Shown here piece by piece: positions 13,875 to 52,171 of a DNA stretch of 64,000 nucleotides (within the stretch, counting starts at the first letter, position 1; every line of letters begins with the position of its first letter). The stretch lies in NCBI RefSeq assembly GCF_016903815.1, contig NZ_CP069973.1; one strand, 5' to 3'. The position numbers and the translations under genes are program-made. This stretch comes from Escherichia coli (GTDB lineage Bacteria > Pseudomonadota > Gammaproteobacteria > Enterobacterales > Enterobacteriaceae). The notes under the pieces are model-generated. The model was not told the DNA's origin. It saw nothing but the letters and a program-made list of their open reading frames with translations, and ran no database searches.

Positions 13875-15416
<1,542 letters not shown>

Positions 15417-15484: not shown

Positions 15485-15561
<77 letters not shown>

Positions 15562-15603
15562 AATTTGCACCGCAAATTTGAAGAGGTTTTAACTACATGT
15601 TAT

Positions 15604-15862: not shown

Positions 15863-18767
<2,905 letters not shown>

Positions 18768-18859
18768 ACAACGCCGAAGGTGTTTTGGCGGATGAGAGAA
18801 GATTTTCAGCCTGATACAGATTAAATCAGAACGCAGAAGCGGTCTGATGAAACAGAATT

Positions 18860-18979
18860 TGCCTGGCGGCCTTAGCGCGGTGGTCCCACCTGACCCCATG
18901 CCGAACTCAGAAGTGAAACGCCGTAGCGCCGATGGTAGTGTGGGGTCTCCCCATGCGAGAGTAGGGAACTGCCAGGCAT
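18860..18979 (+). rRNA. rrfA: 5S ribosomal RNA, 120 nt
   Basis: TGCCTGGCGGC...GGGAACTGCCAGGCAT, the canonical E. coli 5S ends. Confidence 0.95.
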
Positions 18980-19106: not shown

Positions 19107-19628
19107 ATGAAACATTCATTTGAAGTAAAAATTGCCGCTGTAAATCATTACCTGGCCGGTCATGCAGGCATCATTTCTACGGCAAAACTCTTTCAACTTT
19201 CTCACACCAGCCTCTCACACTGGATTAATCTTTTTCTTCTTCACGGTCCTCAGGCACTGGATTGCAGACACAAGCGTAGCTATTCTCCTGAAGATAAACT
19301 TTGCGTGGTTCTTTATGCTCTCGGGCATTCTGAGTCTCTACCCCGGGTAGCTGCCCGGTTTAACATTCCCAGCCACAACACGGTTAAAAACTGGATAAAA
19401 GGCTACCGCAAATCTGGTAATGAGGCCTTTATCAGGCGCAGGAAGGAGAAATGCATGACCCGTTCTGATGATACCCATGAAAACGAGGCAAACATGACGC
19501 CGGAAGAGATGAAGAATGAGCTGCGTTATCTTCGCGCAGAAAATGCATATCTGAAAGCCATGCAGGAGCATCTCCTGGAAAAAAAGCGCCAGGAGCTGGA
19601 GAAAAAACGAAAGTCATCCGGAGCCTGA
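19107..19628 (+). CDS. IS3-family transposase OrfA (helix-turn-helix / leucine-zipper part)
   Basis: Track ORF 19098..19628; the ATG at 19107 lies 8 nt after GAAGG; the C-terminus ...RYLRAENAYLKAMQEHLLEKKRQELEKKRK is the coiled-coil typical of IS3 OrfA. Confidence 0.85.
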   Translation: MKHSFEVKIAAVNHYLAGHAGIISTAKLFQLSHTSLSHWINLFLLHGPQALDCRHKRSYSPEDKLCVVLYALGHSESLPRVAARFNIPSHNTVKNWIKGYRKSGNEAFIRRRKEKCMTRSDDTHENEANMTPEEMKNELRYLRAENAYLKAMQEHLLEKKRQELEKKRKSSGA

Positions 19629-19732
19629 GGTGCGGACACTGCCAGTCTGATCTGTTAAAGGCTGCAGGGCTGGCCAGAAGCACGCTGTACTACCAGCTGT
19701 CACTGCAGAAGGCTAAGGACAAGTATGCTGAT

Positions 19733-20488
<756 letters not shown>

Positions 20489-23700: not shown

Positions 23701-24413
23701 GTGCACAGAAAACCCCCAGCTAGGCTGGGGGTTCCGGAAAGCTTTCAGCTTTAAGCCAGTTATTAAAACCCCTTTTGATTTGTTAAAACACCTTGCGGTC
23801 TGGCAACTGCAAGTGTCAAACAAGAAATCAAAAGGGGGTCCCAATGGGGAACGAAAAGAGCTTAGCGCACACCCGATGGAACTGTAAATATCACATAGTT
23901 TTTGCGCCAAAATACCGAAGACAGGTGTTCTACAGAGAGAAGCGTAGAGCAATAGGCAGTATTTTGAGAAAGCTGTGTGAGTGGAAAAGTGTACGGATTC
24001 TGGAAGCTGAATGCTGTGCAGATCATATCCATATGCTTGTGGAGATCCCGCCCAAAATGAGCGTATCCGGCTTTATGGGATATCTGAAAGGGAAAAGCAG
24101 TCTGATGCTTTACGAGCAGTTTGGTGATTTGAAATTCAAATACAGGAACAGGGAGTTCTGGTGCAGAGGGTACTACGTCGATACGGTGGGTAAGAACACG
24201 GCGAAGATACAGGATTACATAAAGCACCAGCTTGAAGAGGATAAAATGGGAGAGCAGTTATCGATTCCCTATCCGGGCAGCCCGTTTACGGGCCGTAAGT
24301 AACGAAGTTGGATGCAAATGTCAGATCGTGTGCGCCTGTTAGGGCGCGGCTGGTAAGAGAGCCTTATAGGCGCATTTGAAAAACCTCCGGCTATGCCGGA
24401 GGATATTTATTTA
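23701..24413 (+). mobile_element. IS200-like element (IS200/IS605 family), copy A, about 0.71 kb
   Basis: Bounded by sequence identity to copy B (40452..41163). Left-end hairpin cccccagc-tag-gctggggg, a second structured region sequestering the tnpA RBS, and a right-end hairpin cctccggc-tat-gccggagg. The left boundary is uncertain by a few nt inside the T-run. Confidence 0.85.
23844..24302 (+). CDS. tnpA: IS200-type HUH (Y1) transposase TnpA (152 aa)
   Basis: Translation MGNEKSLAHTRWNCKYHIVFAPKYRRQVFYREKRRAIGSILRKLCEWKSVRILEAECCADHIHMLVEIPPKMSVSGFMGYLKG... with the HxH (HIHML) motif; closely matches recalled IS200/IS1541 TnpA. Confidence 0.9.
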   Translation: MGNEKSLAHTRWNCKYHIVFAPKYRRQVFYREKRRAIGSILRKLCEWKSVRILEAECCADHIHMLVEIPPKMSVSGFMGYLKGKSSLMLYEQFGDLKFKYRNREFWCRGYYVDTVGKNTAKIQDYIKHQLEEDKMGEQLSIPYPGSPFTGRK

Positions 24414-36795: not shown

Positions 36796-38205
36796 TTAGA
36801 CGCTGTAGTACAGCTCAAACTCTACCGGATGCGGAGTCATACGCACGCGGTCATCTTCTTCGCGACGCAGAGCGATGTACGCATCGATCGCTTCATCAGT
36901 GAACACACCACCGGCTTTCAGGAACTCGCGGTCCAGATCCAGTTCGTTCAGTGCTTCTTCCAGAGAACCAGCAACCTGTGGGATCTCTTTCGCTTCTTCC
37001 GGCGGCAGGTCATACAGGTTTTTGTCCATCGCTTCGCCCGGATGGATCTTGTTCTTGATACCGTCAAGACCGGCCATCAGCAGGGCAGCAAAGCACAGGT
37101 ACGGGTTAGCCGCCGGGTCCGGGAAACGTACTTCGATACGACGTGCTTTCGGAGAAGAAACCACCGGAATACGGATAGACGCAGAACGGTTGCGTGCAGA
37201 GTAAGCCAGCATTACCGGTGCTTCGTAGCCCGGGACCAGACGCTTGTAAGAGTTGGTGGTCGGGTTTGCCAGGGCATTAATCGCTTTCGCGTGTTTGATT
37301 ACGCCGCCAATATAGTACAGCGCCTGCTCAGACAGACCTGCGTATTTGTCGCCTGCGAACAGGTTGACGCCGTTTTTAGACAGCGACATGTGGCAGTGCA
37401 TACCGGAGCCGTTATCACCGAACATCGGTTTTGGCATAAAGGTCGCGGTTTTACCGAAGCGGTGCGCTACGTTGTGCACAACATATTTGTAGATCTGAAT
37501 TTCGTCAGCTTTTTTGGTCATGGTATTGAAGCGGGTAGCCACTTCGTTCTGACCAGCAGTCGCTACTTCGTGGTGATGGGCTTCAACCACCAGGCCCATC
37601 TGTTCCATCACCAGACACATTTCAGAACGAATATCCTGAGCAGAGTCTACCGGCGGAACCGGGAAGTAACCGCCTTTCACTGCCGGACGGTGACCTTTGT
37701 TACCACCTTCGTATTGGGTGGAGGAGTTCCATGCGCCTTCGATATCGTCGATAGCAACGTGAGAACCGGAGATAGATGATCCGAAACGGATGTCATCGAA
37801 CAGGAAGAATTCAGGTTCTGGCCCGAACAGTACGGTGTCGGCAATGCCAGTGGAACGCAGGTAATCTTCGGCGCGCTTCGCAATGGAGCGCGGGTCACGG
37901 TCATAGCCTTGCAGGGTGCCAGGTTCAAGGATGTCGCAACGGATAATCAGGGTGGAGTCGGCGAAGAACGGGTCAATCACTGCGGTGGATGCGTCTGGCA
38001 TCAGCACCATGTCGGACTCGTTAATGCCTTTCCAGCCGCCAATCGAGGAGCCGTCAAACATTTTGCCTTCTTCGAAGAATTCAGCATTCACCTGATGAGC
38101 AGGGATAGTGACGTGCTGTTCTTTACCTTTAGTATCGGTGAAGCGCAAATCAACAAACTTCACTTCGTGCTCGTTCAGCATCGTCAGTACGTGTTCAGCG
38201 GACAT
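36796..38205 (-). CDS. glnA: Glutamine synthetase GlnA (469 aa)
   Basis: Translation [40 protein letters not shown]... matches GlnA. Confidence 0.97.
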
Positions 38206-38288
38206 ACTTTAACTCTCCTGGATTGGTCATGGTCGTCGTGGTAACGAAATCTGCAATTATTTTGGCCGTGTCGCCGTAAAAAAGATAA

Positions 38289-38305
38289 AGCGAAATCTGT
38301 GCCAA
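38289..38305 (-). promoter_or_regulatory. glnAp2 sigma54 promoter (TTGGCACAGATTTCGCT on the minus strand)
   Basis: -24 GG and -12 GC elements with the canonical spacing, about 85 bp upstream of the glnA start. Confidence 0.8.
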
Positions 38306-38344
38306 CTTTTAAATTGCCCCTAAAAGGCGTTATCATGCTTAACA

Positions 38345-38430
38345 TCGTGCAAAAGGGCTGCACCATGATGTGAATGTTGCACCAATATAGTGCTTCAATG
38401 GAAACATTAAGCACCATATTGGTGCAATGA
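38345..38430. promoter_or_regulatory. NtrC enhancer sites upstream of glnA (TGCACCA-N-TGGTGCA palindromes)
   Basis: Near-perfect palindrome gcaccatattggtgc at 38411-38425 plus related half-sites tgcaccaatatagtgc and tgcaccatgatg upstream. Confidence 0.75.
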
Positions 38431-38577
38431 CCTTTGGATAACCCTTTTTATGCTCCGTGAAAGCAATCACAAAGGGACTCTGCAATACTTGTTTGCGGAG
38501 GATGTTTGTGATCCTGTTTTGTAGTGCGATTAATCCGTGTACAATAACGCGCTATTTCTAATGCCTGAGGCAAAGTT

Positions 38578-40401
38578 GTGATCGAAAAATTGCGTAATAT
38601 CGCCATCATCGCGCACGTAGACCATGGTAAAACCACCCTGGTAGACAAGCTGCTCCAACAATCCGGTACGTTCGACTCTCGTGCCGAAACCCAAGAGCGC
38701 GTGATGGACTCCAACGATTTGGAGAAAGAGCGTGGGATTACCATCCTCGCGAAAAACACCGCTATCAAATGGAATGATTACCGTATCAACATCGTTGATA
38801 CCCCGGGGCACGCCGACTTCGGTGGTGAAGTTGAACGTGTAATGTCCATGGTAGACTCAGTGCTGCTGGTGGTTGACGCATTTGACGGCCCGATGCCGCA
38901 AACGCGCTTCGTAACCAAAAAAGCGTTTGCTTACGGCCTGAAGCCGATTGTTGTTATCAACAAAGTTGACCGCCCTGGCGCGCGTCCTGACTGGGTTGTG
39001 GATCAGGTATTCGACCTGTTCGTTAACCTCGACGCGACCGACGAGCAGCTGGACTTCCCGATCGTTTACGCTTCTGCGCTGAACGGTATCGCGGGTCTGG
39101 ACCACGAAGATATGGCGGAAGACATGACCCCGCTGTATCAGGCGATTGTTGACCACGTTCCTGCGCCGGACGTTGACCTTGACGGTCCGTTCCAGATGCA
39201 GATTTCTCAGCTCGATTACAACAGCTATGTTGGCGTTATCGGCATTGGCCGCATCAAGCGCGGTAAAGTGAAGCCGAACCAGCAGGTCACTATCATCGAT
39301 AGCGAAGGCAAAACCCGTAACGCGAAAGTCGGTAAAGTGCTGGGCCACCTCGGTCTGGAACGTATCGAAACCGACCTGGCGGAAGCTGGCGATATCGTGG
39401 CGATCACGGGCCTGGGCGAACTGAACATTTCTGACACCGTTTGCGACACGCAAAACGTTGAAGCGCTGCCGGCACTCTCCGTTGATGAGCCGACCGTTTC
39501 TATGTTCTTCTGCGTTAACACCTCGCCGTTCTGCGGTAAAGAAGGTAAGTTCGTAACGTCTCGTCAGATCCTGGATCGTCTGAACAAAGAACTGGTACAC
39601 AACGTTGCTCTGCGCGTAGAAGAAACCGAAGACGCCGATGCGTTCCGCGTTTCTGGTCGTGGCGAACTGCACCTGTCTGTTCTGATCGAAAACATGCGTC
39701 GTGAAGGTTTCGAACTGGCGGTATCCCGTCCGAAAGTTATCTTCCGTGAAATCGACGGTCGTAAACAAGAGCCGTATGAAAACGTGACTCTGGACGTTGA
39801 AGAACAGCATCAGGGTTCTGTAATGCAGGCGCTGGGCGAACGTAAAGGCGACCTGAAAAACATGAATCCAGACGGTAAAGGCCGCGTACGTCTCGACTAC
39901 GTGATCCCAAGCCGTGGTCTGATTGGTTTCCGTTCTGAGTTCATGACCATGACTTCCGGTACGGGTCTGCTGTACTCCACCTTCAGCCACTACGACGACG
40001 TACGTCCGGGTGAAGTGGGTCAGCGTCAGAATGGCGTACTGATCTCTAACGGTCAGGGTAAAGCGGTAGCGTTCGCGCTGTTCGGTCTGCAGGATCGCGG
40101 TAAGCTGTTCCTCGGTCACGGTGCAGAAGTTTACGAAGGTCAGATTATCGGTATTCATAGCCGCTCTAACGACCTGACTGTAAACTGCCTGACCGGTAAG
40201 AAACTGACCAACATGCGTGCTTCCGGTACTGACGAAGCCGTTGTTCTGGTTCCGCCTATCCGCATGACTCTGGAACAAGCTCTGGAGTTCATCGATGATG
40301 ACGAACTGGTAGAAGTGACTCCGACCTCTATCCGTATTCGTAAACGTCACCTGACGGAAAACGATCGTCGTCGCGCCAACCGCGCACCGAAAGACGATTA
40401 A
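38578..40401 (+). CDS. typA: Ribosome-associated translational GTPase TypA/BipA (607 aa, GTG start)
   Basis: Translation [32 protein letters not shown]... matches BipA. Confidence 0.95.
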
Positions 40402-40424
40402 TTTCGTTTTTTAGTTATAAAAAA

Positions 40425-40451
40425 CCTGCCATCGCTGGCAGGTTTTTTTTT
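40425..40451 (+). terminator. typA rho-independent terminator (cctgccatcgctggcagg plus nine T)
   Basis: Stem cctgcca/tggcagg followed by a T-run; the IS200-like copy B begins immediately after. Confidence 0.8.
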
Positions 40452-41163
40452 GTGCACAGAAAACCCCCAGCTAGGCTGGGGGTTCCGGAAAGCTTTCAGC
40501 TTTGAGCCAGTTATTAAAACCCCTTTTGATTTGTTAAAACACCTTGCGGTCTGGCAACTGCAAGTGTCAAACAAGAAATCAAAAGGGGGTCCCAATGGGG
40601 AACGAAAAGAGCTTAGCGCACACCCGATGGAACTGTAAATATCACATAGTTTTTGCGCCAAAATACCGAAGACAGGTGTTCTACAGAGAGAAGCGTAGAG
40701 CAATAGGCAGTATTTTGAGAAAGCTGTGTGAGTGGAAAAGCGTACGGATTCTGGAAGCTGAATGCTGTGCAGATCATATCCATATGCTTGTGGAGATCCC
40801 GCCCAAAATGAGCGTATCCGGGTTTATGGGATATCTGAAAGGGAAAAGCAGTCTGATGCTTTACGAGCAGTTTGGTGATTTGAAATTCAAATACAGGAAC
40901 AGGGAGTTCTGGTGCAGAGGGTACTACGTCGATACAGTGGGTAAGAACACGGCGAAGATACAGGATTACATAAAGCACCAGCTTGAAGAGGATAAAATGG
41001 GAGAGCAGTTATCGATTCCCTATCCGGGCAGCCCGTTTACGGGCCGTAAGTAACGAAGTTGGATGCAAATGTCAGATCGTGTGCGCCTGTTAGGGCGCGG
41101 CTGGTAAGAGAGCCTTATAGGCGCATTTGAAAAACCTCCGGCTATGCCGGAGGATATTTATTA
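40452..41163 (+). mobile_element. IS200-like element, copy B, same orientation as copy A
   Basis: Near-identical to 23701..24413 (only a few substitutions seen); the same terminal hairpins are present. Confidence 0.85.
40595..41053 (+). CDS. tnpA: IS200-type HUH (Y1) transposase TnpA (152 aa)
   Basis: Track ORF 40544..41053; the internal ATG gives MGNEKSLAHTRWNCKYHIVF..., with an amino-acid sequence identical to copy A. Confidence 0.9.
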   Translation: MGNEKSLAHTRWNCKYHIVFAPKYRRQVFYREKRRAIGSILRKLCEWKSVRILEAECCADHIHMLVEIPPKMSVSGFMGYLKGKSSLMLYEQFGDLKFKYRNREFWCRGYYVDTVGKNTAKIQDYIKHQLEEDKMGEQLSIPYPGSPFTGRK

Positions 41164-41328
41164 CCTGTCGTGAGCGCACACCAATGCGAGTATCTCCCTT
41201 ATAAGTCTGTGATTACGTCAATAGAGAGCTTTGTCACAATTATCTGCAAAGTCATACACCGTTAATTGCTTTCTTTTTTGGCGTAAGCGTAAGATGCTTC
41301 ATCTGGTTTAAACCAAAAGGATTAAACA

Positions 41329-42039
41329 ATGGCGGAGAATCAATCCACCGTAGAAAATGCAAAAGAGAAACTGGATCGGTGGTTGAAAGATGGCATCACC
41401 ACGCCGGGTGGAAAACTCCCTTCAGAAAGAGAGCTGGGAGAACTGCTGGGCATTAAACGTATGACGCTGCGCCAGGCGTTGTTGAACCTCGAGGCAGAAT
41501 CCAAAATCTTCCGTAAGGATCGTAAGGGGTGGTTCGTGACCCAGCCGCGATTTAATTACAGTCCGGAGCTGTCAGCGAGCTTTCAGCGGGCCGCAATTGA
41601 GCAAGGACGAGAGCCTTCTTGGGGGTTTACCGAGAAAAACCGTACCAGCGATATTCCCGAGACGCTCGCGCCACTGATTGCAGTGACACCATCAACTGAA
41701 CTCTATCGCATCACCGGCTGGGGGGCGCTGGAAGGACATAAAGTTTTCTATCACGAAACATATATTAATCCTGAAGTTGCTCCGGGTTTTATTGAACAAC
41801 TTGAAAACCACTCATTTTCTGCAGTCTGGGAAAAGTGCTACCAGAAAGAGACGGTAGTAAAAAAATTGATTTTCAAACCCGTCAGAATGCCGGGCGATAT
41901 CAGCAAGTATCTTGGCGGTTCTGCGGGTATGCCAGCGATCTTAATTGAAAAGCATCGCGCCGACCAGCAAGGCAATATTGTCCAGATAGATATTGAATAT
42001 TGGCGATTTGAGGCCGTAGACCTCATCATTAATCTGTAG
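41329..42039 (+). CDS. yihL: YihL, GntR-family (HTH plus UTRA-like) transcriptional regulator, 236 aa
   Basis: Translation MAENQSTVENAKEKLDRWLKDGITTPGGKLPSERELGELLGIKRMTLRQALLNLEAESKIFRKDRKGWFV.... Confidence 0.88.
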   Translation: MAENQSTVENAKEKLDRWLKDGITTPGGKLPSERELGELLGIKRMTLRQALLNLEAESKIFRKDRKGWFVTQPRFNYSPELSASFQRAAIEQGREPSWGFTEKNRTSDIPETLAPLIAVTPSTELYRITGWGALEGHKVFYHETYINPEVAPGFIEQLENHSFSAVWEKCYQKETVVKKLIFKPVRMPGDISKYLGGSAGMPAILIEKHRADQQGNIVQIDIEYWRFEAVDLIINL

Positions 42040-42046
42040 GTGTTTT

Positions 42047-43027
42047 ATGGTGACAATAAATAACGCAAGAAAGATTCTACAACGTGTCGACACTCTTCCT
42101 CTTTATTTACATGCTTATGCCTTTCATTTAAATATGCGGCTGGAAAGAGTGTTGCCTGCTGATTTACTTGATATCGCAAGTGAAAATAATCTACGTGGCG
42201 TCAAAATCCATGTTCTGGACGGCGAGCGTTTTTCTCTTGGTAATATGGACGATAAAGAACTCTCTGCCTTTGGGGATAAAGCCCGCCGTCTGAACCTTGA
42301 TATTCATATTGAAACCAGCGCTTCAGATAAGGCATCTATTGACGAAGCCGTCGCCATTGCGTTGAAAACTGGGGCATCGTCCGTACGTTTTTATCCACGT
42401 TATGAAGGTAATTTGCGCGACGTATTATCGATCATCGCTAACGACATTGCCTATGTACGGGAAACGTATCAGGACAGCGGCCTGACTTTTACGATCGAAC
42501 AGCATGAAGATTTAAAAAGCCATGAGTTGGTGTCGCTGGTCAAAGAAAGTGAGATGGAATCTCTTTCCTTACTGTTTGATTTTGCGAACATGATCAATGC
42601 AAATGAGCATCCCATCGACGCTTTAAAAACGATGGCACCGCATATTACCCAGGTCCATATCAAAGATGCCTTGATCGTTAAAGAAGAGGGTGGCCTGGGT
42701 CATAAAGCCTGTATTTCAGGTCAGGGTGATATGCCGTTCAAAGCGTTATTAACGCACCTTATATGCCTGGGTGATGATGAGCCGCAGGTGACGGCATATG
42801 GCCTGGAAGAAGAGGTTGATTACTATGCGCCGGCGTTCCGCTTTGAAGACGAAGATGATAATCCGTGGATCTCTTATCGCCAGATGAGTGAAACACCATT
42901 GCCAGAAAATCATTTACTGGATGCGCGGTTACGTAAAGAAAAAGAAGATGCAATTAATCAGATAAATCATGTGCGTAACGTACTACAACAAATCAAACAA
43001 GAGGCAAACCATCTTCTGAACCACTAA
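42047..43027 (+). CDS. yihM: YihM, putative sugar phosphate isomerase/epimerase (TIM barrel), 326 aa
   Basis: Translation MVTINNARKILQRVDTLPLYLHAYAFHLNMRLER...; gene order yihL-yihM-yihN as in K-12. Confidence 0.85.
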   Translation: MVTINNARKILQRVDTLPLYLHAYAFHLNMRLERVLPADLLDIASENNLRGVKIHVLDGERFSLGNMDDKELSAFGDKARRLNLDIHIETSASDKASIDEAVAIALKTGASSVRFYPRYEGNLRDVLSIIANDIAYVRETYQDSGLTFTIEQHEDLKSHELVSLVKESEMESLSLLFDFANMINANEHPIDALKTMAPHITQVHIKDALIVKEEGGLGHKACISGQGDMPFKALLTHLICLGDDEPQVTAYGLEEEVDYYAPAFRFEDEDDNPWISYRQMSETPLPENHLLDARLRKEKEDAINQINHVRNVLQQIKQEANHLLNH

Positions 43028-43128
43028 TAAGTTTTAACTCATACGCAGTTAATAAAACCATTCGATATGAATGGTCGGTATCTTATTGCCTTTAAAACAG
43101 TGATTTTAAAAATCGCTTAGGGGATGTT

Positions 43129-44394
43129 ATGCTCACGAAAAAGAAATGGGCGTTATTTAGTCTATTAACATTGTGTGGCGGTACAATTTATAAATTACCG
43201 TCGCTGAAAGATGCGTTTTATATCCCGATGCAGGAATATTTCCATTTGACCAATGGTCAAATTGGTAATGCTATGTCGGTAAACTCATTTGTCACGACAG
43301 TGGGCTTTTTTCTGTCTATTTATTTTGCCGATAAACTACCGCGCAGATACACCATGTCATTCTCACTCATTGCGACAGGATTACTGGGTGTTTATTTGAC
43401 GACAATGCCGGGGTATTGGGGCATCCTCTTTGTCTGGGCGCTATTTGGCGTTACTTGCGACATGATGAACTGGCCGGTCTTGCTCAAGTCGGTAAGTCGA
43501 TTGGGCAATAGCGAACAACAAGGTCGGTTGTTTGGCTTCTTCGAAACAGGGCGTGGCATTGTCGATACCGTGGTGGCATTTTCTGCGTTGGCAGTATTTA
43601 CCTGGTTTGGCAGTGGCTTATTGGGTTTTAAAGCAGGCATCTGGTTCTATTCCCTTATTGTGATTGCCGTAGGCATTATCATTTTCTTTGTTCTGAATGA
43701 CAAAGAAGAGGCACCGTCCGTTGAGGTGAAAAAAGAAGACGGAGCATCGAAAAACACCAGTATGACCTCGGTGCTGAAAGACAAAACTATCTGGCTTATC
43801 GCTTTCAACGTCTTCTTCGTTTACGCGGTTTACTGTGGCCTGACATTCTTCATTCCATTCCTGAAAAACATCTATCTATTGCCCGTTGCGCTGGTGGGGG
43901 CTTACGGCATCATTAACCAATACTGTCTGAAAATGATTGGTGGACCGATTGGTGGCATGATTTCAGATAAGATCCTGAAATCGCCGAGTAAATATCTATG
44001 CTACACCTTTATCATCAGTACCGCTGCGCTCGTACTGTTGATTATGCTGCCGCACGAAAGTATGCCGGTATATTTAGGGATGGCATGTACGCTGGGCTTT
44101 GGCGCGATAGTCTTTACACAGCGAGCCGTATTTTTTGCACCTATCGGCGAAGCAAAAATTGCTGAAAATAAAACAGGCGCGGCGATGGCGTTGGGTAGCT
44201 TTATTGGTTACGCCCCGGCGATGTTCTGCTTCAGTCTGTATGGCTACATTCTGGATTTAAATCCGGGGATTATTGGCTACAAAATTGTGTTTGGCATTAT
44301 GGCCTGCTTCGCATTCTGTGGTGCGGTGGTTTCCGTAATGCTGGTTAAGCGTATTAGCCAACGTAAGAAAGAGATGCTGGCGGCTGAAGCTTGA
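43129..44394 (+). CDS. yihN: YihN, MFS transporter, 421 aa
   Basis: Translation MLTKKKWALFSLLTLCGGTIYKLPSLKDAFYIPMQEYF... with about 12 predicted hydrophobic segments. Confidence 0.88.
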   Translation: MLTKKKWALFSLLTLCGGTIYKLPSLKDAFYIPMQEYFHLTNGQIGNAMSVNSFVTTVGFFLSIYFADKLPRRYTMSFSLIATGLLGVYLTTMPGYWGILFVWALFGVTCDMMNWPVLLKSVSRLGNSEQQGRLFGFFETGRGIVDTVVAFSALAVFTWFGSGLLGFKAGIWFYSLIVIAVGIIIFFVLNDKEEAPSVEVKKEDGASKNTSMTSVLKDKTIWLIAFNVFFVYAVYCGLTFFIPFLKNIYLLPVALVGAYGIINQYCLKMIGGPIGGMISDKILKSPSKYLCYTFIISTAALVLLIMLPHESMPVYLGMACTLGFGAIVFTQRAVFFAPIGEAKIAENKTGAAMALGSFIGYAPAMFCFSLYGYILDLNPGIIGYKIVFGIMACFAFCGAVVSVMLVKRISQRKKEMLAAEA

Positions 44395-44400
44395 TTAATG

Positions 44401-44478
44401 GCCGGATGTGGCTTAATCCGGCCAACGGAAACCGTATCAACCGTAGGCCGGATAAGGCGTTTTCGCCGCATCCGGCAG
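44401..44478. repeat. REP palindromic units between yihN and ompL
   Basis: gccggatgtggcttaatccggcc ... gtaggccggataaggcgttttcgccgcatccggca. Confidence 0.65.
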
Positions 44479-44485
44479 TTTTACA

Positions 44486-45178
44486 TCAGAAGAAATACTT
44501 CGTCCCGATACGAATCTGGTTTTGCTCGCGGTGGTACGGTTCGACATTACGATCTAACCAGCGTAATTCGAAATAAGGGAGCCAGTGTTCATTAATGCGA
44601 TAACGGAAGGTGTTAGTGATTTCCCAGTGATGATCTTTTCCATTGCTGCTATTAAAGTCATTTACTCGCATGAAGTAATGTGGTTCAAATGTATAGGAGA
44701 ATTTCTCGGTGATTTTAAAATTCCAGTAGGTGCCAACTTCATAGGTGTCGTTATTATCCAATTCGCCGTTCAAATCTGTAGAGCTGTAATTATTATGGTT
44801 ATAGCGATTACGCACCGTCAGGTTAAACCACGGAGTAAATTTGTAGTTAACATCCAGATAAACGGCACCACCCGAACCGATACTCTTGTCATTAATTAAG
44901 CCACCGGGCTGGATGGTTAATTTATCGGTTGGTTTAAATAAAGGATACCAACCTTCAATTTCATTATAGCCATGTTTGAGTTCATCTTCTCGCTGAAAGG
45001 TGTAGGTATTGGTTAACATAATACCCGCGCCCATATCGAAGTTATAACCCACGCGTAGCATAACTTCGCCCTGATCGGAGGCGAGATTATATGCCTCCCT
45101 GTTTTCGACGTATGCGCCAGCAAATACCGAGGCAGAGGTCAGAGAGGATAATAGAATTATTGCATTAATCTTTTTCAT
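44486..45178 (-). CDS. ompL: Outer membrane porin OmpL (230 aa)
   Basis: Track ORF 44486..45244; the internal start gives MKKINAIILLSSLTSASVFAGAYVENREAYN... and the C-terminal ...RIGTKYFF beta-barrel signature. Confidence 0.9.
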   Translation of the reverse strand: MKKINAIILLSSLTSASVFAGAYVENREAYNLASDQGEVMLRVGYNFDMGAGIMLTNTYTFQREDELKHGYNEIEGWYPLFKPTDKLTIQPGGLINDKSIGSGGAVYLDVNYKFTPWFNLTVRNRYNHNNYSSTDLNGELDNNDTYEVGTYWNFKITEKFSYTFEPHYFMRVNDFNSSNGKDHHWEITNTFRYRINEHWLPYFELRWLDRNVEPYHREQNQIRIGTKYFF

Positions 45179-45244
45179 AATAAGTCCATTTTTAAACGTA
45201 GGGAGGCCGCCACCCACCAGGATGGAAATAGCGGCTATTGACAT

Positions 45245-46648
45245 TTATAACGTTACGGAAGCCGTTTTTTCTTCTGTCGCCATCTCTTTATTTTTGCGTT
45301 GGTTGATTTCCTCAATAATCAATGCAAACCGTTTTTCATTGAGTGTGTAAAAGAATCCCATCGTCAATGCAGCAATAATTGCCAGTGCACAAGGCCAGAT
45401 AAAAATGAGCTGACGCAAACCCTGTAATGTCGCATCACTTTGCGCGATGTTGGGAACATAACCGATTTGCGTCAGCATAATGCCTGGCAAGAAGCCAGCA
45501 AGTGCGGCAGAAATTTTACGAAAGAAGGTATAACCGGTATAAACAGAACCTTCGGCACGAATACCGGTTTTCCATTCACCGTAATCTACGGTATCTGGCA
45601 CCAGTGCCCAGTTCAGGCTGTTTACAAAGGCCGTGCCAAAAAAGGCGACACAAGAGAACATGACGAAAGTGAAAGAGTTACTTCCCCAGAAATAATTCAG
45701 GATATCACCAACCGCCCATAGCACCATGCCAGCTAAATAAACCTGTTTTTTACCAAAACATTTTACAGTTAATGGCACCAGTAATACGCCGACGAGGATA
45801 CATCCCATACTGAAAAATCCCATCCACGACAATAAATTAATATCATTCAGCACATACTGGGTGTAATAGACCTGAATCGCCAGTTTGATATTAAATGCCG
45901 CCAGGGTACACAGGTTAGCAATGCACAAAACCAGCAATGGCGGATTACGAAATATCGCGCAAAAAGATTTGAGAATACTGGCTTTATGTCCGGTTGGCGT
46001 CGTGTCCACATAATGCTCTTTGACGCCTCTGTAGCACAGCATCATAAAAATAAAGCCACCAATGGAGAACATCAGTGCCGCGCAGGCATAACCGACGGTG
46101 GAGTCAGAAAAAAGCGACTGCAACGGAATAAACGCCACGGTACAAATCAATAGCCCTATGGTTGCACCACCCTGGCGGTAAGCCGCGAGCTGCGCGCGCT
46201 CATTCGGGTTTTTGGTAATTGCCGGGATCATCGCACCATACGAGCAGTTCATCAGACTGTATGAAAGTCCAAACATCATAAACAGTGCGGTGGCAATCGT
46301 CGTTTTAACCGGCAAACTAAAGGTGGTGGCGATAAACTGGAGCGTTGCAATTAACGCCGCCGGAACCGCTGCATATAAAATAAAGGGACGAAATTTGCCT
46401 TTAGGCCCAATATTTTTCCGCGAGTCGAGTAAAAATCCGGTGAGCATATCGGTAAACGCGGTAAAAAACTTCGCCACCAGAAAGATAATCCCGCCATAGT
46501 AAGCAGGCATCCCTAATTCATCGGTATAAAATTTGAGGAGATACAGAGTACCGATGCAGAGCATTAAATTCGAACCGACGTCGCCCATACCATAGGCGAT
46601 TTTTTCCCGCAGATTCAGTCTTAATGTCAGTGGATTATGGTCAGACAT
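45245..46648 (-). CDS. yihO: YihO, GPH-family (MelB-like) sulfoquinovose importer, 467 aa
   Basis: Translation MSDHNPLTLRLNLREKIAYGMGDVGSNLMLCIGTLYLLKFYTDELGMPAYYGGIIFL.... Confidence 0.92.
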   Translation of the reverse strand: MSDHNPLTLRLNLREKIAYGMGDVGSNLMLCIGTLYLLKFYTDELGMPAYYGGIIFLVAKFFTAFTDMLTGFLLDSRKNIGPKGKFRPFILYAAVPAALIATLQFIATTFSLPVKTTIATALFMMFGLSYSLMNCSYGAMIPAITKNPNERAQLAAYRQGGATIGLLICTVAFIPLQSLFSDSTVGYACAALMFSIGGFIFMMLCYRGVKEHYVDTTPTGHKASILKSFCAIFRNPPLLVLCIANLCTLAAFNIKLAIQVYYTQYVLNDINLLSWMGFFSMGCILVGVLLVPLTVKCFGKKQVYLAGMVLWAVGDILNYFWGSNSFTFVMFSCVAFFGTAFVNSLNWALVPDTVDYGEWKTGIRAEGSVYTGYTFFRKISAALAGFLPGIMLTQIGYVPNIAQSDATLQGLRQLIFIWPCALAIIAALTMGFFYTLNEKRFALIIEEINQRKNKEMATEEKTASVTL

Positions 46649-46690
46649 AATCACTCCTTATAACGCCCCGCAGGGCGTTGTTTATTATAA

Positions 46691-48076
46691 TTACGCCGTG
46701 CGTTTACGGGCTTCTATCTCTTCAACAATGCGGACGTACATCTTCTCGTTCAGACTGTAGAAGCAACCCATCGCCACAATGGTGACTACTGCCAGTGCGC
46801 TTGGGTAGATGAAGATCAGCTGGCGCAACCCTTCAATGGTGTGGTCAGCCTGTGCGACGTTTGGCACATAGCCGATTTGCGTCAGCATCCAGCCTGGGAA
46901 GAAACCTGCCAGCGCCTGAGATACTTTGCGAAAGAAGGTGAAGCCGGTGTAGACCGTACCTTCCGAACGCACACCGGTGCGCCACTCGCCGTACTCGACG
47001 GTGTCGGAAACCAGCGCCCAGTTCAGGCTGTTAACAAACGCCGAGCCGAAGAATGCCAGGCAGGAGAACGCCACAAAGCTGACCGAGCCGCCGCCGAAGA
47101 AATAGTTGAGCAGATCGCCCAGCACCCAAATCAGCAGGCCGCCGATATAGACCTTCTTCTTACCAAAACGTCTGACTGCGCCAGGCATCAGGAACACGCC
47201 GATGAAAATACAGCCCATGCTGAAAAATCCCATATACGACAACAGGATGGGATCGTTAAGTACGTACTGGGTGTAATAGACCTGGATGGCGAGCTTGACG
47301 TTAAACGCCCCTAAAGTGCAGAGGTTGGCAATGCACAGAATGAACAGCGGGCGGTTACCGGCAATTGCGCGGAAAGATTGCAACAGGCCTGGCTTTTGCG
47401 CCGGATTGGTAGGTTGGGTTTCGACATAACGCTCTTTCACGCCCGAGTAGCAGATCCACATAAACAGCAGGCCGAACAGTGAAAACAGCGTGGCAGCGAA
47501 GATATAGCCAATTTGCTGATTACCTTCGATAAGATTCATAACCGGCACGAATCCCACCGTACACAGCAGTAAGCCCAATGTAGCGCCACCCTGACGCCAT
47601 GCTGCCAGCGATGCGCGTTCGTTGGGGTTTTTGGTAATAGCGGGGACCATTGCGCCGTAGGAGCAGTTCATCATGCTGAAAAACAGCCCGTAGAGCATAA
47701 ACAGAATAGTGGCCATCACCGTTTTACCGGTGACATCAAACGGTGTGCCGACAAAGTTGGCGATCGCCAGCAGAGTGACCGGGAATGATGCATACAGAAT
47801 AAAAGGGCGGAATTTGCCTTTTGGACCGATCTTGCGCCGGGAATCGAGCATGATGCCGGTACCCATATCGGTAAAGGCGGTAAAGAATTTCGAGATCAAA
47901 AAGATAATGCCGCCATAGGTGCCGGGCAGCCCCAGAACGTCGGTATAAAACTTCAAAAGATAAAGCGTGCCGATATCCAGCAGGATGTTAGAGGCCAGAT
48001 CGCCGATACCGTAAGAGAGTTTCTCTTTAAAGGGCAGACGTAAAGTAGCCGGATCTTCCGTTGTGATGTGACTCAT
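46691..48076 (-). CDS. yihP: YihP, GPH-family transporter, paralog of YihO
   Basis: Track ORF 46691..48109; the internal start gives MSHITTEDPATLRLPFKEKLSYGIGDLASNILLDIGTLYLLKFYTDVLG.... Confidence 0.92.
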   Translation of the reverse strand: MSHITTEDPATLRLPFKEKLSYGIGDLASNILLDIGTLYLLKFYTDVLGLPGTYGGIIFLISKFFTAFTDMGTGIMLDSRRKIGPKGKFRPFILYASFPVTLLAIANFVGTPFDVTGKTVMATILFMLYGLFFSMMNCSYGAMVPAITKNPNERASLAAWRQGGATLGLLLCTVGFVPVMNLIEGNQQIGYIFAATLFSLFGLLFMWICYSGVKERYVETQPTNPAQKPGLLQSFRAIAGNRPLFILCIANLCTLGAFNVKLAIQVYYTQYVLNDPILLSYMGFFSMGCIFIGVFLMPGAVRRFGKKKVYIGGLLIWVLGDLLNYFFGGGSVSFVAFSCLAFFGSAFVNSLNWALVSDTVEYGEWRTGVRSEGTVYTGFTFFRKVSQALAGFFPGWMLTQIGYVPNVAQADHTIEGLRQLIFIYPSALAVVTIVAMGCFYSLNEKMYVRIVEEIEARKRTA

Positions 48077-48121
48077 CGTTGTTCTCCCTTTGCCCGTGAG
48101 TTTCCCCACGGGCGGACGTGA

Positions 48122-50158
48122 TTAGATGCTTTTTAACGACGCGAACAGTGCCGCCCATTCGCTATCGGCGCGATAAAAGACCGGCGGCTTGCCGATGGGC
48201 GCATTAACGGTCACTTCCCCGCCCCGGAATGCTTCACCCGTCCAGGCATGGACCCAGTTATCCTCCGGCAGATAGAGCGTCCAGTCGCTACGGCCTTCTT
48301 CATGCACCGGAGCGACCAGAATGTCGCGGCCTAACAGGTACTGATATTTCAGGGTGTAGGTCTGCGCGTCGTCTTCGTAATGCAGGAACAGCGGGCGCAT
48401 GACCGGCAGACCGGACTTCGCATTCAGCGCGACGGCCTCTTTCAGATAAGGTTTCAGGGTGGTGAAGACGGTGGTCATACGGGCGAAATGGGCGATGGTT
48501 TCCGCGTCGCCGTCAAACTGCCAGTTGTCGCCAGGACGGTTACCTTCGTGGGTGCGCATCATCGGCGTGAAGGCGCTGAAATCGCACCAGCGCAGCAGCA
48601 GCTCTTTGCTGCGCTTCATCTCAAACAGGGTGGTGTAACCGCCAATGTCGCTGTGATGCAGGCCATGTCCGGTCATTGCCAGCGACAGCGCCGCCGGGAC
48701 AACCGACGCCAGGCCATCGTCGAGACTCCAGTCGACGTTCTGGTCGCCCGCCCACATCATGGTGGAGTATTTCTGGCTACCGGTAGAACCGGCGCGCATA
48801 AAGAAGAGGATCTCGCCGAGCTTGCCCGTTTCTTCAAGGGCTTCGTAGTTACATTTCGCCCACAGCGCAGGCCAGGCGTTATGCATAATTTCCGCGCTGA
48901 CGCCGTTATGCAGGTACGTGTCGGTGGGCAGATACTCGCCGAAGTCAGCCATCCAGCCGCCGCAGCCAAGTTCAATCATGTTCTTTTTGATCACTTCCTT
49001 GAACCAGGCGTAGGCTTCTGGATTGGTGAGGTCGACAACGCCGCCATAGAACTCGCCAAACTCCACCAGATAGTCGCCGCCAGAGGCATCTTTTGCCAGA
49101 TAACCGCGCTTTGCCGCCTCTTCGCAGAGATCTTTATCGCTGGCTACATACGGGTTGATATAGGCCAGGAACTGCACGCCCTCTTTGTTCCACTGCTTAA
49201 TACGTGAGTCCAGTTGCGGATAGTTTTCGCTGTTCCACTTCCAGTTCCACATTACGCGTTTGCCAAAAGAGGTCATACGGATCCCGGACCAGTCCTGCGC
49301 CCAGATGCCGTTAACCTTCACACCCGCGTTACGCATGGTGTCCAGTTTCTTCTGACACACTTCCGTCCCGCCCTGAATGCCGAGCGTTACCCCGTCATAA
49401 ATCCAGTCGGGCAGTTCTGGCTGGCGTCCCAGCAGGGCAGTTAATTTTTCCAGCAGGGAGATGTATGTATCAGCACATTCAAAACGCAGCGTTGCTTTGT
49501 CTTCCCACAGCGCCAGTTCATGGTATTCCGGGGCGCTAAAGTCGAAGTTCATGTAGCAACTGTTATCAACATGGCAGTAATACTTCTGCGTGCTGACAAA
49601 CGTAGGCTGTGGGAAGAAAGTCCAGTAATAGTCGCCGCCCGCGTTCTCTTTGCAGTCGGCCTGCCAGGTGACATAGGTTTGCTTGTTGCGACCAACGCCT
49701 TGTTCACTGGTCCATAGCGGGAACGGTTTGCCGCGCAGATCGAAGTAGGAAAACTGTTCGCCGCAGCCGTAGATATGGTCCTCTGGTTGAGCGGCAAGGC
49801 GCAGCCAGATGCGGTTGTGGTTAAGGTTGTCGTTTTGTAGTTCCAGCAATAAACGGCCCTGATCGTCGGCAGAGATATTCAGCGTGGCGCTAATGTCAGA
49901 ACCACGGCTGAAATGGATTAACCAACCATCCGGTGACTGGCTGACGATGGCGTCGGTAAGCGCAATTTTCTCCTGTAGTTTATCTTTAATGCTGAAATTG
50001 CCGCGGAACATATCGATATCCGCAATACCTGAACCAATCCATAAACAAGGATTATCTTTGCTATGGGTTAAAATAAGACGCTGTTGAAAATGTAGGGTAA
50101 AACAGTCGTTATTCTGATGAAACTGAAAATCTGGTAATTGTGGGCGTGGCGTATCCAT
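48122..50158 (-). CDS. yihQ: Sulfoquinovosidase YihQ (GH31), 678 aa
   Basis: Translation MDTPRPQLPDFQFHQNNDCFTLHFQQRLILTHSKDNPCLWIGSG... matches YihQ. Confidence 0.95.
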   Translation of the reverse strand: MDTPRPQLPDFQFHQNNDCFTLHFQQRLILTHSKDNPCLWIGSGIADIDMFRGNFSIKDKLQEKIALTDAIVSQSPDGWLIHFSRGSDISATLNISADDQGRLLLELQNDNLNHNRIWLRLAAQPEDHIYGCGEQFSYFDLRGKPFPLWTSEQGVGRNKQTYVTWQADCKENAGGDYYWTFFPQPTFVSTQKYYCHVDNSCYMNFDFSAPEYHELALWEDKATLRFECADTYISLLEKLTALLGRQPELPDWIYDGVTLGIQGGTEVCQKKLDTMRNAGVKVNGIWAQDWSGIRMTSFGKRVMWNWKWNSENYPQLDSRIKQWNKEGVQFLAYINPYVASDKDLCEEAAKRGYLAKDASGGDYLVEFGEFYGGVVDLTNPEAYAWFKEVIKKNMIELGCGGWMADFGEYLPTDTYLHNGVSAEIMHNAWPALWAKCNYEALEETGKLGEILFFMRAGSTGSQKYSTMMWAGDQNVDWSLDDGLASVVPAALSLAMTGHGLHHSDIGGYTTLFEMKRSKELLLRWCDFSAFTPMMRTHEGNRPGDNWQFDGDAETIAHFARMTTVFTTLKPYLKEAVALNAKSGLPVMRPLFLHYEDDAQTYTLKYQYLLGRDILVAPVHEEGRSDWTLYLPEDNWVHAWTGEAFRGGEVTVNAPIGKPPVFYRADSEWAALFASLKSI

Positions 50159-50265
50159 AAATAATCTCCATAGAGTATAAAGCTAATATTTCATGCCATC
50201 CTGTTGTTACAGGTTTCATTAATTAAAGAATGTGTGCGGGTATAAATTAAAACCCGCATAAGTGA

Positions 50266-51141
50266 TTATTTACTTTCTTCAGCCCGGCGGATTGCCGCCA
50301 CTTTTTTACCAAATGCCAGTTGCAGTATAACTAACAAGGTAAAAGGAGGCAGAAGCGCGGCAGCAGCGGGAATTCCCAGCGCGCCTTTTATCAACATAGA
50401 ACCGGAGGCAATCAGCAACAAAAAGACCATCACACGGAACACTTTGACTGAAATGCGTTTATGCACATATTGTCCAACCAGTGAACCGAGGATCATGGTG
50501 GGAATACAAAACAGCACCAGTTTAAAGATAGAAACAGTCAAAATTCCGCTGGTCGCCAGCCCGCCGATCACCGCGATGTTGTTTGCGGTGAAGAAAGCGT
50601 TCAGAGTGCCACGAAATGCCGCCGGGCCTAAGTTACGCAGCATACCGTAGATAACCATCGGCGGTCCGTTGGTTGAGAACGCCGCGCCTAATGCGCCAGC
50701 TACTGCGCCGATAGGTGCGGCGATCCAGTTACGGTCATAAATCGGCAGGCGAGGAATAAACATGCTGTAAAACGAGTAAAGGATAAGGAATCCGCCTAAG
50801 CCCACTTTCATAAAATGGTCGGGTAAATACGACAGCGCATATAAACCGACGGGTATTCCCAGAAACGAGAAAATAATCAGTACCATTGCCGATCGCCAAT
50901 CCGTTTCTTTACGTGACAGCCAGGTGGCGTACAAGGCGGTCGCGGTGCCGACAATCACCGAGAGCGGAGTTGCCATTTTTACGGGGAGCATTAACGTGAC
51001 GAGCGGCATAGTGGTTAAACCACCGCCAAATCCCGCGCATATCCCCACAAAGGTATAAAGAAACATTAACGCGATAACGATACATACCACGCTTGTTTCC
51101 ACCATGGCCCCATCCGGCGAAAATAACGTAAAAAAGTCCAT
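50266..51141 (-). CDS. TauE/SafE (DUF81) family anion permease-like membrane protein, 291 aa; not in the K-12 yih cluster as I recall it
   Basis: Translation MDFFTLFSPDGAMVETSVVCIVIALMFLYTFVGICAGFGGGLTTMPLV...; highly hydrophobic with about 8 predicted helices and the GxGGG helix motif typical of TauE/SafE/YfcA proteins; sits between yihQ and yihR on the same strand. Confidence 0.8.
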   Translation of the reverse strand: MDFFTLFSPDGAMVETSVVCIVIALMFLYTFVGICAGFGGGLTTMPLVTLMLPVKMATPLSVIVGTATALYATWLSRKETDWRSAMVLIIFSFLGIPVGLYALSYLPDHFMKVGLGGFLILYSFYSMFIPRLPIYDRNWIAAPIGAVAGALGAAFSTNGPPMVIYGMLRNLGPAAFRGTLNAFFTANNIAVIGGLATSGILTVSIFKLVLFCIPTMILGSLVGQYVHKRISVKVFRVMVFLLLIASGSMLIKGALGIPAAAALLPPFTLLVILQLAFGKKVAAIRRAEESK

Positions 51142-51201
51142 AATATTTCCTGTTGTGTAAATACAACCCTAAACAATGATCTCGTTCTTTTCTTAATAAA
51201 A

Positions 51202-52113
51202 TTAATTGTGCTGCCCGTGAATATTAAAAAACAGGCGGTGCGTTTTTCCTGGTTCCAGTAATAATAAGTCGATACCTGAATTAAAGGCGTTAGGCGGGCA
51301 ACTCATAGGTTCAACTGCCAGTCCCTGACGCTGTAATTTTTCACCGCTATAAACCTGCACCCAGGGTTGATCGGAACAGAGGCTCACCGAAAGCGCCTGT
51401 TGTGGATGGGTAATGGTTATTTCCCACAGATCATTAGCGGTTTTAAAGGTATGGTCTATTTTTGTCGCGGCTATTTTTGTCGCCCGCGTGAAATTTAAAT
51501 TCAGCTCATCAACGTGGTGAAGCGTTGTCGGATTTGCGTGCTCATCGACGGCATAAACCTGTTCTGCCGGAAGCTGGAAAAGATAGTCATCAACAGATGT
51601 TAAGTTGCAGGTTAAATAAGGATGAATACCCACACCATAAGGTGCGGTCACAGTACCAATATTCTGGCTTGCGATCTCAACGGAAAGACCCGTGCGTGCA
51701 TTGAGCGAATAAACAACTTGTGAAGCCAGCATAAACGGATAGCCGTAACTGGGCGGCAGAAAAGCTGTCAGGGTAACGCTGGTGGCGGTTAATTCGCTAA
51801 TTTGCCAGTCACGCCAGGCAAGCAGCCCGTGAATAGCGGCTTTTGAACTATGTTCATTAATGGGTAACTGATAGTCCTGCCCCTGATAGCGATAACAGCC
51901 GTTGGCGATCCGGTTCGGCCACGGAATAAGCACTTTACCCAGATGCGCCAGCGGCATCTCTTCGGGTTTGTGCGGGATGACTAAATGACAACCCTGAAAG
52001 GTTAATTCAGCCAGACCAGCACCAACCGTCACGATAGTCGCGTGATAATCCCCCGCGGCAAGTGAAACGGTTTGTCCACTGCAATGCATGTTGGTGATTT
52101 GCATACGAGGCAC
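51202..52113 (-). CDS. yihR: YihR, aldose-1-epimerase family (sulfoquinovose mutarotase)
   Basis: Translation MPRMQITNMHCSGQTVSLAAGDYHATIVTVGAGLAELTFQGCHLVIPHKPEEMPLAHLGK...; the start may instead be the internal MQITNM. Confidence 0.9.
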   Translation of the reverse strand: MPRMQITNMHCSGQTVSLAAGDYHATIVTVGAGLAELTFQGCHLVIPHKPEEMPLAHLGKVLIPWPNRIANGCYRYQGQDYQLPINEHSSKAAIHGLLAWRDWQISELTATSVTLTAFLPPSYGYPFMLASQVVYSLNARTGLSVEIASQNIGTVTAPYGVGIHPYLTCNLTSVDDYLFQLPAEQVYAVDEHANPTTLHHVDELNLNFTRATKIAATKIDHTFKTANDLWEITITHPQQALSVSLCSDQPWVQVYSGEKLQRQGLAVEPMSCPPNAFNSGIDLLLLEPGKTHRLFFNIHGQHN

Positions 52114-52171
52114 CTTTATTGAATAACGACATACCCGGCATGTAGCCTGATATGCCGTTATTTCAGCTCAG

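Follow-up and report, generated by a model that had tools for sequence, protein, structure and literature searches.

A TauE/SafE-family permease gene in the sulfoquinovose cassette of Escherichia coli and its possible role in C3-sulfonate export

Introduction

Pfam family TauE (PF01925) was founded on TauE of Cupriavidus necator H16 and SafE of Neptuniibacter caesariensis, which reportedly export sulfite and sulfoacetate, respectively. Permeases of the same family are also encoded together with the enzymes of sulfoquinovose breakdown (sulfoglycolysis), where they are predicted to export C2 or C3 sulfonates: SftE in the sulfo-transaldolase pathway of Bacillus, Enterococcus, and Clostridium (PMC7491151), SqwE in the sulfo-transketolase pathway (PMC12890257), and a TauE in the sulfoquinovose pathway of Arthrobacter. 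In the sulfo-EMP (sulfo-Embden-Meyerhof-Parnas) pathway of Escherichia coli, encoded by the yih cassette, YihO is the presumed importer of sulfoquinovose, and the end product 2,3-dihydroxypropanesulfonate (DHPS) is exported "most likely by YihP" (PMC6278857), an assignment restated in PMC12890257; this wording agrees with an initial annotation of the locus described here, which had called YihP's export role mainly inferential. Here we analyze tauE, a gene located between yihQ and yihR in a stretch of 64,000 nucleotides from E. coli (contig NZ_CP069973.1; "the window" refers to this whole stretch), and propose that its product probably exports DHPS.

The window's TauE can be compared with four described proteins. 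It has the hidden Markov model family, the G-rich motif of the first transmembrane helix, and the core of the 8-transmembrane type in common with C. necator TauE and N. caesariensis SafE, but those two serve C2-sulfonate metabolism (taurine, sulfoacetate) and are encoded beside desulfonating enzymes, whereas the window's TauE is found without desulfonation and likely handles a C3 sulfonate. SftE and SqwE are members of the same Pfam family with the same kind of genetic company and predicted role; they belong to other pathways, however, and the window's TauE falls into an enterobacterial orthogroup with an extra C-terminal helix that is presumably distinct from theirs. YihP is encoded in the same cassette and is a candidate for the same step, but its fold and family are unrelated (TIGR00792, glycoside-pentoside-hexuronide [GPH]:cation symporters, a family typically made up of sugar importers). 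The Klebsiella quasipneumoniae cassette keeps TauE and has no YihP, and E. coli K-12 has YihP and lacks TauE. Lastly, the housekeeping protein YfcA (UPF0721) of E. coli K-12 shares Pfam family and RefSeq product name with TauE, but it is only 26% identical to it over 117 residues (BLASTP, E = 1e-4) and lies in a mepA-aroC context; this identity and the unrelated context rule out that TauE is an ortholog or duplicate of YfcA and make the two distant paralogs.

As a kind, TauE-type permeases encoded in sulfoquinovose clusters are thus already known, and the family label is in RefSeq. Relative to the literature examined, it appears to be new that the sulfo-EMP cassette of E. coli and Salmonella ancestrally includes tauE, that E. 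coli is polymorphic for it, that one tight orthogroup serves both sulfo-EMP clusters and clusters of the sulfo-Entner-Doudoroff (sulfo-ED) type, and that a comparative tally of transporters favors TauE over YihP as the dedicated exporter.

Results

A predicted permease of a distinct TauE subfamily

The initial annotation, made from the letters of the window without database searches, had proposed a TauE/SafE-like permease of 291 amino acids encoded at 50266-51141, and this reading frame holds: it begins with ATG, comprises 291 codons, appears in the program-made list of open reading frames, and gives a stop-free translation. RefSeq annotation was taken from E. coli strain 7/2 (NZ_CP023820.1), which has 3 mismatches to the window in 64 kb; in it, the product of the gene between yihQ and yihR is WP_000345433.1, named "sulfite exporter TauE/SafE family protein." A search with the TauE/SafE family model, which the initial annotation had suggested as a check, matched PF01925 over residues 23 to 248 (E = 4.7e-35, 121.8 bits, model positions 2 to 235 of 237). 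The same Pfam family was carried by all 120 homologues listed, and a search of NCBIfam matched no family to the tauE product.

An AlphaFold2 model built from 111 relatives was of high confidence (mean pLDDT 94, pTM 0.89). Its helices (residues 16-36, 40-49, 54-75, 82-105, 108-128, 138-155, 159-168, 173-198, 203-227, and 232-255) form an 8-transmembrane-type core whose two halves are equivalent and have five helices apiece, one of them short and broken, and an additional C-terminal helix (259-290) extends beyond the TauE core. The early estimate of about eight helices was therefore right for the type of core and left out the short broken helices and the C-terminal extension. The helix breaks follow G/P-rich motifs, GFGGG at residues 37-41 and NGPP at residues 158-161; the former is the GxGGG helix motif noticed initially, in which G37 never varies and at least 90% of the 111 aligned relatives keep F38 and G39. 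The N-terminal and C-terminal halves matched each other in register in a profile-profile comparison, though weakly (hhalign, E = 0.019 over 35 columns). Foldseek against AFDB50 returned only models named "Probable membrane transporter protein" (TauE/UPF0721), with query-normalized TM-scores of about 0.8 for generic members of about 240 amino acids and 0.96 for one ortholog, and with target-normalized TM-scores mostly between 0.8 and 0.98 against the AFDB models. A sequence search of the PDB gave no match at E <= 1, and there is no solved structure for any sequence-detectable relative; the best PDB fold match in Foldseek, BacA/UppP, was weak (TM 0.44, E = 0.013). Judged from sequence and model together, the tauE product is a genuine permease of the TauE/SafE (TSUP) family, in keeping with the initial reading, which the Pfam match, the AlphaFold2 model, the Foldseek results, and the conserved glycine motif all support.

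Within this family, the protein belongs to a small and discrete group. In an exhaustive HMMER search of 1.84 billion representative (cluster) proteins, the full-length orthologs formed one 50%-identity cluster, whose representative (P0097) is 80% identical to the window protein, and the other high-identity matches were fragments. Azospirillum thermophilum and Craterilacuibacter also have members of this orthogroup. The next full-length relatives are 27 to 38% identical, have about 240 amino acids (about 50 fewer), and align only to residues 15 to 255 or so; no non-orthologous relative in this protein set exceeded 38% identity. The two nearest of them (P0127 and P0131, about 35 to 38% identical) lie in unrelated and uninformative gene contexts. 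Because a single ortholog cluster is followed by such a gap, the subfamily is, on sequence and model evidence, sharply separate from the rest of the TauE family, with the extra C-terminal helix as its mark.

TauE orthologs in sulfoglycolysis clusters of three arrangements

We examined the gene contexts of orthologs in about a dozen genomes. Every context was a sulfoglycolysis cluster, and three arrangements were found. In arrangement (a), seen in Escherichia and Salmonella, the order is yihR-TauE-yihQ. In arrangement (b), seen in Enterobacteriaceae strain RIT691 and K. quasipneumoniae, the order is yihQ-TauE-GPH; the RIT691 cassette holds both YihP-like and YihO-like genes, and the K. quasipneumoniae cassette holds a single GPH gene (73% identity to YihO, 68% to YihP) together with TauE, with neither YihP nor ompL. 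In arrangement (c), TauE is the last gene of a sulfo-ED-type operon, as in Leminorella, Hafnia, Kluyvera, Enterobacter kobei, and Mixta and apparently also, by tblastn, in Edwardsiella and Vibrio owensii. The TauE orthologs are 75 to 93% identical to one another across arrangements, and a neighbor-joining tree groups them by arrangement.

The operon of arrangement (c) consists of LacI and SSF symporter genes divergent from genes for an IlvD/Edd dehydratase, an HpcH aldolase, an aldose epimerase, an SGL lactonase, a beta-hydroxyacid dehydrogenase, an SDR, and TauE, a domain set that corresponds to the sulfo-ED pathway families of PMC9594981. The Leminorella SDR best matched the solved "Sulfoquinovose 1-dehydrogenase" 9gwu (E = 8e-93, 313 bits; next match, 198 bits), and Hafnia and Leminorella are among the sulfo-ED carriers of Frommeyer et al. 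We also considered a pentose (Dahms) pathway for these operons, which is less likely given this SDR match and that listing; the dehydratase scored 891.8 bits, just above the L-arabinonate dehydratase cutoff of 882 bits, a possible source of misannotation.

No aldehyde dehydrogenase gene and no sulfoquinovosidase gene were found in the sulfo-ED-type operons examined. An enzyme resembling tartronate-semialdehyde reductase replaces the sulfolactate-forming aldehyde dehydrogenase of Pseudomonas putida, and because this reductase-like enzyme stands where the aldehyde dehydrogenase would be, DHPS is the predicted product. The presence of the beta-hydroxyacid dehydrogenase and the absence of a sulfoquinovosidase gene suggest that the enterobacterial operons represent a DHPS-forming variant that acts on free sulfoquinovose.

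Two of these genomes deserve mention for the position of their operons. In Kluyvera ascorbata, the sulfo-ED-type operon (locus 1-12557) ends beside typA-glnA, the neighborhood in which Salmonella (locus 14996-18876) and E. coli (window 36796-45178) carry the sulfo-EMP yih cassette, so that one chromosomal site seemingly houses two different sulfoquinovose pathways in related genera. In E. kobei (locus 1-16876), a sulfo-ED-type operon with TauE lies beside a sulfo-EMP cassette, with only genes for a type VI secretion system Hcp and a Tlde1-domain protein between them; that cassette reads csqR, yihV, yihU, yihT, and yihS, followed directly by yihQ, with no yihR.

An ancestral gene that is polymorphic in E. 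coli

In a census of 5,426 complete E. coli genomes, yihS, which we took as the sign of a full-length ("long") cassette, was present in 3,997. Full-length tauE was present in 1,287 genomes (24%, or 32% of those with a full-length cassette), among them O157:H7 strains with the same gene order, and it was full length in nearly all of the 1,295 genomes with any match to it. A gene-free yihQ-yihR spacer of 197 bp was found in 2,517 genomes, MG1655 included, which bears out the statement in the initial annotation that K-12 has no gene at this place. The remaining genomes have no yihS, which fits the "short" yihTUVW cassette (PMC12608037).

The initial annotation had also read the gene as an extra exporter carried by this strain, and here the comparison of the yihQ-yihR interval with K-12 and other Enterobacteriaceae reverses the polarity. 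The gene is absent from K-12, but Salmonella enterica has the order yihU-T-S-R-TauE-yihQ-P-O-ompL, with a TauE 86% identical to that of the window, and in E. whittamii the order is unchanged and the TauE 99% identical. The Salmonella protein is indexed in 23,831 blocks of the collection searched, and the gene was in every Salmonella cassette examined. Since both Salmonella and E. whittamii carry TauE in the same slot, the simplest reading of these sequences is that tauE is ancestral between yihR and yihQ and that the K-12-type haplotype, which would be the derived one, lost it. As for the K-12-type spacer itself, only about 60 bp on the yihQ side is clearly homologous to the window; the end on the yihR side bears a weak resemblance to the yihR-tauE spacer (z about 2.5), and no match was found for the middle. 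This middle part is unrelated or decayed, and the polarity of loss is given by the outgroups and not by a remnant of tauE.

Both selection and divergence identify tauE as an old gene. Its dN/dS was 0.029 in comparison with E. whittamii and 0.049 in comparison with Leminorella, and its synonymous sites were saturated in comparison with Salmonella, as were those of yihQ, yihS, and yihP. Taken together, the Pfam match, the dN/dS of 0.03 to 0.05, and the confident AlphaFold2 model show that tauE is a real, selected gene and not a chance open reading frame. Its alleles in E. coli are about 100%, 97.8%, and 96.6% identical to that of the window. We ruled out a recent horizontal insertion on the grounds of an ordinary G+C content (49.8%), the saturation of synonymous sites against Salmonella, and allele divergence of up to 3.5%; the lack of flanking mobile-element genes or repeats among the open reading frames of the window and in the RefSeq annotation also counts against one. 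The sequence evidence thus describes a gene that is old and maintained.

Typical core genes differ far less between E. coli strains than the yih cassette does, and the divergence of the cassette is mosaic, as seen when window positions 44400-57200 are compared with strain EC17GD31, which lacks TauE. Divergence was 1 to 7% per 300 bp across the cassette, with peaks of 10 to 16% in ompL (44400-45000), yihQ (48900-49200), and the 5' part of yihR (51900-52200), and the two TauE-positive haplotypes (window and O157:H7) were as far apart from each other as TauE-positive from TauE-negative. The yihR allele of the window is 94% identical in amino acids to the K-12-type allele. Its final three codons read QHN* in the TauE-positive allele (window 51202-51213) and QRK* in the K-12-type allele (EC17GD31 6257-6268), so that the end of yihR is also where the replaced segment has its boundary. 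The yihR product is, moreover, the cassette protein least conserved when E. coli is compared with Salmonella (70% identity).

This distribution bears on an explanation that we consider unlikely, namely, that TauE serves as a redundant or accessory carrier of anions whose loss is cheap, for instance as a safety valve for sulfolactaldehyde, sulfolactate, or conditional sulfonates. Such a role would account for why most E. coli strains lack the gene and fits its widely varying presence within the species, the recombination-prone mosaic nature of the locus (in the comparison with EC17GD31 and in PMC12608037), and the competence of K-12 on sulfoquinovose (PMC6278857). However, the gene is under strong purifying selection, its reading frame is almost always intact where it is present, and its conservation across many genera and two pathways argues for a real and specific role.

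Comparative context favors export of DHPS

Each sulfoglycolytic cluster needs both sugar uptake and disposal of the C3 sulfonate. In the Klebsiella cassette and the sulfo-ED-type operons, the only transporters are one sugar:cation symporter and TauE, which makes TauE the only exporter candidate within these clusters. Moreover, sulfo-EMP cassettes encode YihU, and the sulfo-ED-type operons encode a reductase with no aldehyde dehydrogenase, so that DHPS is the predicted common product. Nearly the same TauE accompanies importers and enzymes that are unrelated, which is better explained by a product in common than by a common route for the substrate. We propose that TauE is a secondary-transport permease of a narrow subfamily dedicated to enterobacterial sulfoglycolysis: YihU forms DHPS from sulfolactaldehyde, and TauE would then probably carry this end product out of the cell. 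As a member of the cassette, tauE would share a transcript with yihR and yihQ and presumably be induced by sulfoquinovose. It was probably an original part of the sulfo-EMP cassette of Escherichia and Salmonella, and its loss in K-12-type strains would have left export to YihP or to another carrier. In its general form, the suggestion in the initial annotation of a possible C3-sulfonate exporter is favored by this comparative context; its stronger wording, "the real exporter," finds no support as stated, given that K-12 reportedly excretes DHPS without the gene.

Neither the substrate nor the direction of transport can be read from a permease sequence, and we infer both from the company that the gene keeps. 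An opposite direction, with TauE importing sulfoquinovose, a sulfoquinovose glycoside, or another sulfonate, seems quite improbable to us. In its favor, an uptake system has been proposed among the TSUP members, and the TCDB name of the family comes from a 4-toluenesulfonate uptake permease; in addition, the sulfo-ED-type operons have no sulfoquinovosidase, so that their true substrate and transport needs may be other than assumed. Every cluster examined, however, already has a YihO-like GPH or an SSF symporter, and an importing TauE would leave these clusters with no exporter. The 75 to 93% identity of TauE across clusters with unrelated importers (GPH versus SSF) also fits a common product better.

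A literal reading of the RefSeq and Pfam names would make TauE a sulfite exporter that clears sulfite from desulfonation, and the founding C. necator TauE is described as such (Weinitschke 2007, as cited in a later paper). We regard this as highly improbable. No recognized desulfonating enzyme is encoded in the yih cassette or the sulfo-ED-type operons, the sulfo-EMP pathway is described as excreting DHPS and not as desulfonating (PMC6278857), and generic family members share no more than 38% identity with the protein, so that its name tells the family and does not assign a function.

Several points weigh against export of DHPS by TauE. TsaS, a TSUP member, is an uptake system, and the family therefore does not fix direction. 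That DHPS is the product of the sulfo-ED-type operons is itself predicted from gene content, and their reductase resembles tartronate-semialdehyde reductases more than it resembles YihU. The ortholog contexts are those of about a dozen genomes, and a search of the literature on this TauE subfamily found no transport assay, mutant, or expression data. About 63% of the E. coli genomes with a full-length cassette lack tauE. Above all, K-12 grows on sulfoquinovose and excretes DHPS (PMC6278857), though it has no tauE; it follows that the gene is dispensable there, that TauE is not the sole route, and that another carrier can export DHPS.

Transcription signals and neighboring genes

The coordinates of tauE, its spacers, and the other genes of the cassette are given in Table 1. 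The initial annotation had placed the gene in the sulfo-EMP cluster, co-oriented with its neighbors and set off from yihQ and yihR by spacers of 107 and 60 bp, and all of this is confirmed: the NCBIfam matches of yihQ, yihR, and yihU are to equivalog models, the RefSeq annotation agrees, tauE runs in the same direction as yihR upstream and yihQ downstream, and the start codon of yihQ is at 50158 and the stop codon of yihR at 51202.

Table 1. Positions in the window of tauE, its flanking elements, and the other genes of the yih cassette
Feature	Coordinates	Strand	Basis
tauE coding sequence, TauE/SafE (TSUP) permease, 291 amino acids (predicted)	50266-51141	-	Open reading frame list, translation, Pfam, RefSeq
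yihR-tauE spacer, 60 bp, 27% G+C	51142-51201	-	Sequence
tauE-yihQ spacer, 107 bp	50159-50265	-	Alignment to K-12-like spacer
G+C-rich hairpin, 7 bp, UGCGGGU...ACCCGCA, no U-run	50235-50258	-	RNA fold
yihQ, sulfoquinovosidase, downstream neighbor	48122-50158	-	NCBIfam NF007746, 1245 bits; RefSeq
yihR, sulfoquinovose mutarotase/aldose-1-epimerase, upstream neighbor	51202-52104	-	NCBIfam NF011719, 615 bits; RefSeq
yihP, GPH-family transporter	46691-48076	-	TIGR00792; RefSeq
yihO, GPH-family transporter	45245-46648	-	TIGR00792; RefSeq
ompL, porin	44486-45178	-	RefSeq
yihS, isomerase	52172-53413	-	RefSeq
yihT, aldolase	53429-54307	-	RefSeq
yihU, sulfolactaldehyde reductase (forms DHPS)	54331-55227	-	NCBIfam NF012005 "sulfolactaldehyde 3-reductase," 599 bits; RefSeq
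yihV (sulfofructose kinase) and csqR/yihW (DeoR-type repressor), divergent	55395-57110	+	RefSeq; NCBIfam

A Shine-Dalgarno-like AGGAAA (51146-51151) lies 4 nt 5' of the tauE ATG. A consensus scan of 49900-52300 found no minus-strand promoter, whether in the two tauE spacers or elsewhere, and no minus-strand terminator in the spacers, the only terminator-like site on this strand being within the coding sequence of tauE (51093-51068), and the number of promoter and terminator sites in this region was not above that in shuffled sequence. The lack of such signals in the yihR-tauE spacer is consistent with read-through transcription of tauE from yihR. On the other side of the gene, the hairpin starts a few bases past the tauE stop codon (z-score, -2.4 in an RNA fold of 50159-50275) and was not called by the terminator scan; it is at most a weak terminator or an mRNA-stabilizing element. 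In the alignment of the tauE-yihQ spacer, the part in common with the K-12-type spacer is the roughly 60 bp on the yihQ side.

Elsewhere in the window, IS1397 (IS3 family) directly follows the 5S gene of an rrn operon (19107-20455). Two identical IS200C tnpA copies lie between dsbA and yihF (23844-24302) and between typA and yihL (40595-41053). Downstream of fabY, at 60510-62324, RefSeq annotates a hypothetical pseudogene, truncated, and after it a gene for a transposase; the pair looks like a small, degraded mobile-element scar.

Discussion

The comparisons above allow a further reading that we advance only tentatively. TauE, and not YihP, may be the ancestral and physiological exporter of DHPS in both sulfo-EMP and sulfo-ED-type clusters, with YihP acting as a second importer, for example, of sulfoquinovosyl glycerol. 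The K-12 cassette, on which the textbook pathway is based, would then be a derived one that has lost its dedicated exporter.

We found no mention of the cassette tauE in the open-access literature searched, although supplementary figures of Denger 2014 (Nature) and Felux 2015 (PNAS) may show it. Kaznadzey et al. 2025 (PMC12608037) recognize only a long and a short form of the E. coli yih cassette; the words exporter, permease, and sulfite do not occur in that paper, nor does the split of the long form into cassettes with and without TauE. Sharma et al. 2021 describe the operon of Salmonella as "syntenic" with that of E. coli and do not note the extra gene.

As TauE-type exporters are already a standard prediction in other sulfoquinovose pathways, tauE does not represent a new kind of system. 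Its interest lies in the step that it may serve. Sulfoquinovose breakdown by Enterobacteriaceae feeds DHPS to sulfonate-respiring, H2S-making gut bacteria, and the export step sets the flux of this cross-feeding. Reviews assign that step to YihP without experimental support, and all mechanistic work has been done on K-12, whose cassette has no tauE. E. coli has three cassette types, full length with TauE, full length without it, and short, compared with the two published (PMC12608037), and this constitutes a natural experiment in which the question of the DHPS exporter is directly testable with naturally occurring variants. If TauE is the ancestral exporter, E. coli strains with and without it would differ measurably in DHPS efflux and hence in the cross-feeding of sulfonate-respiring, H2S-producing gut bacteria.

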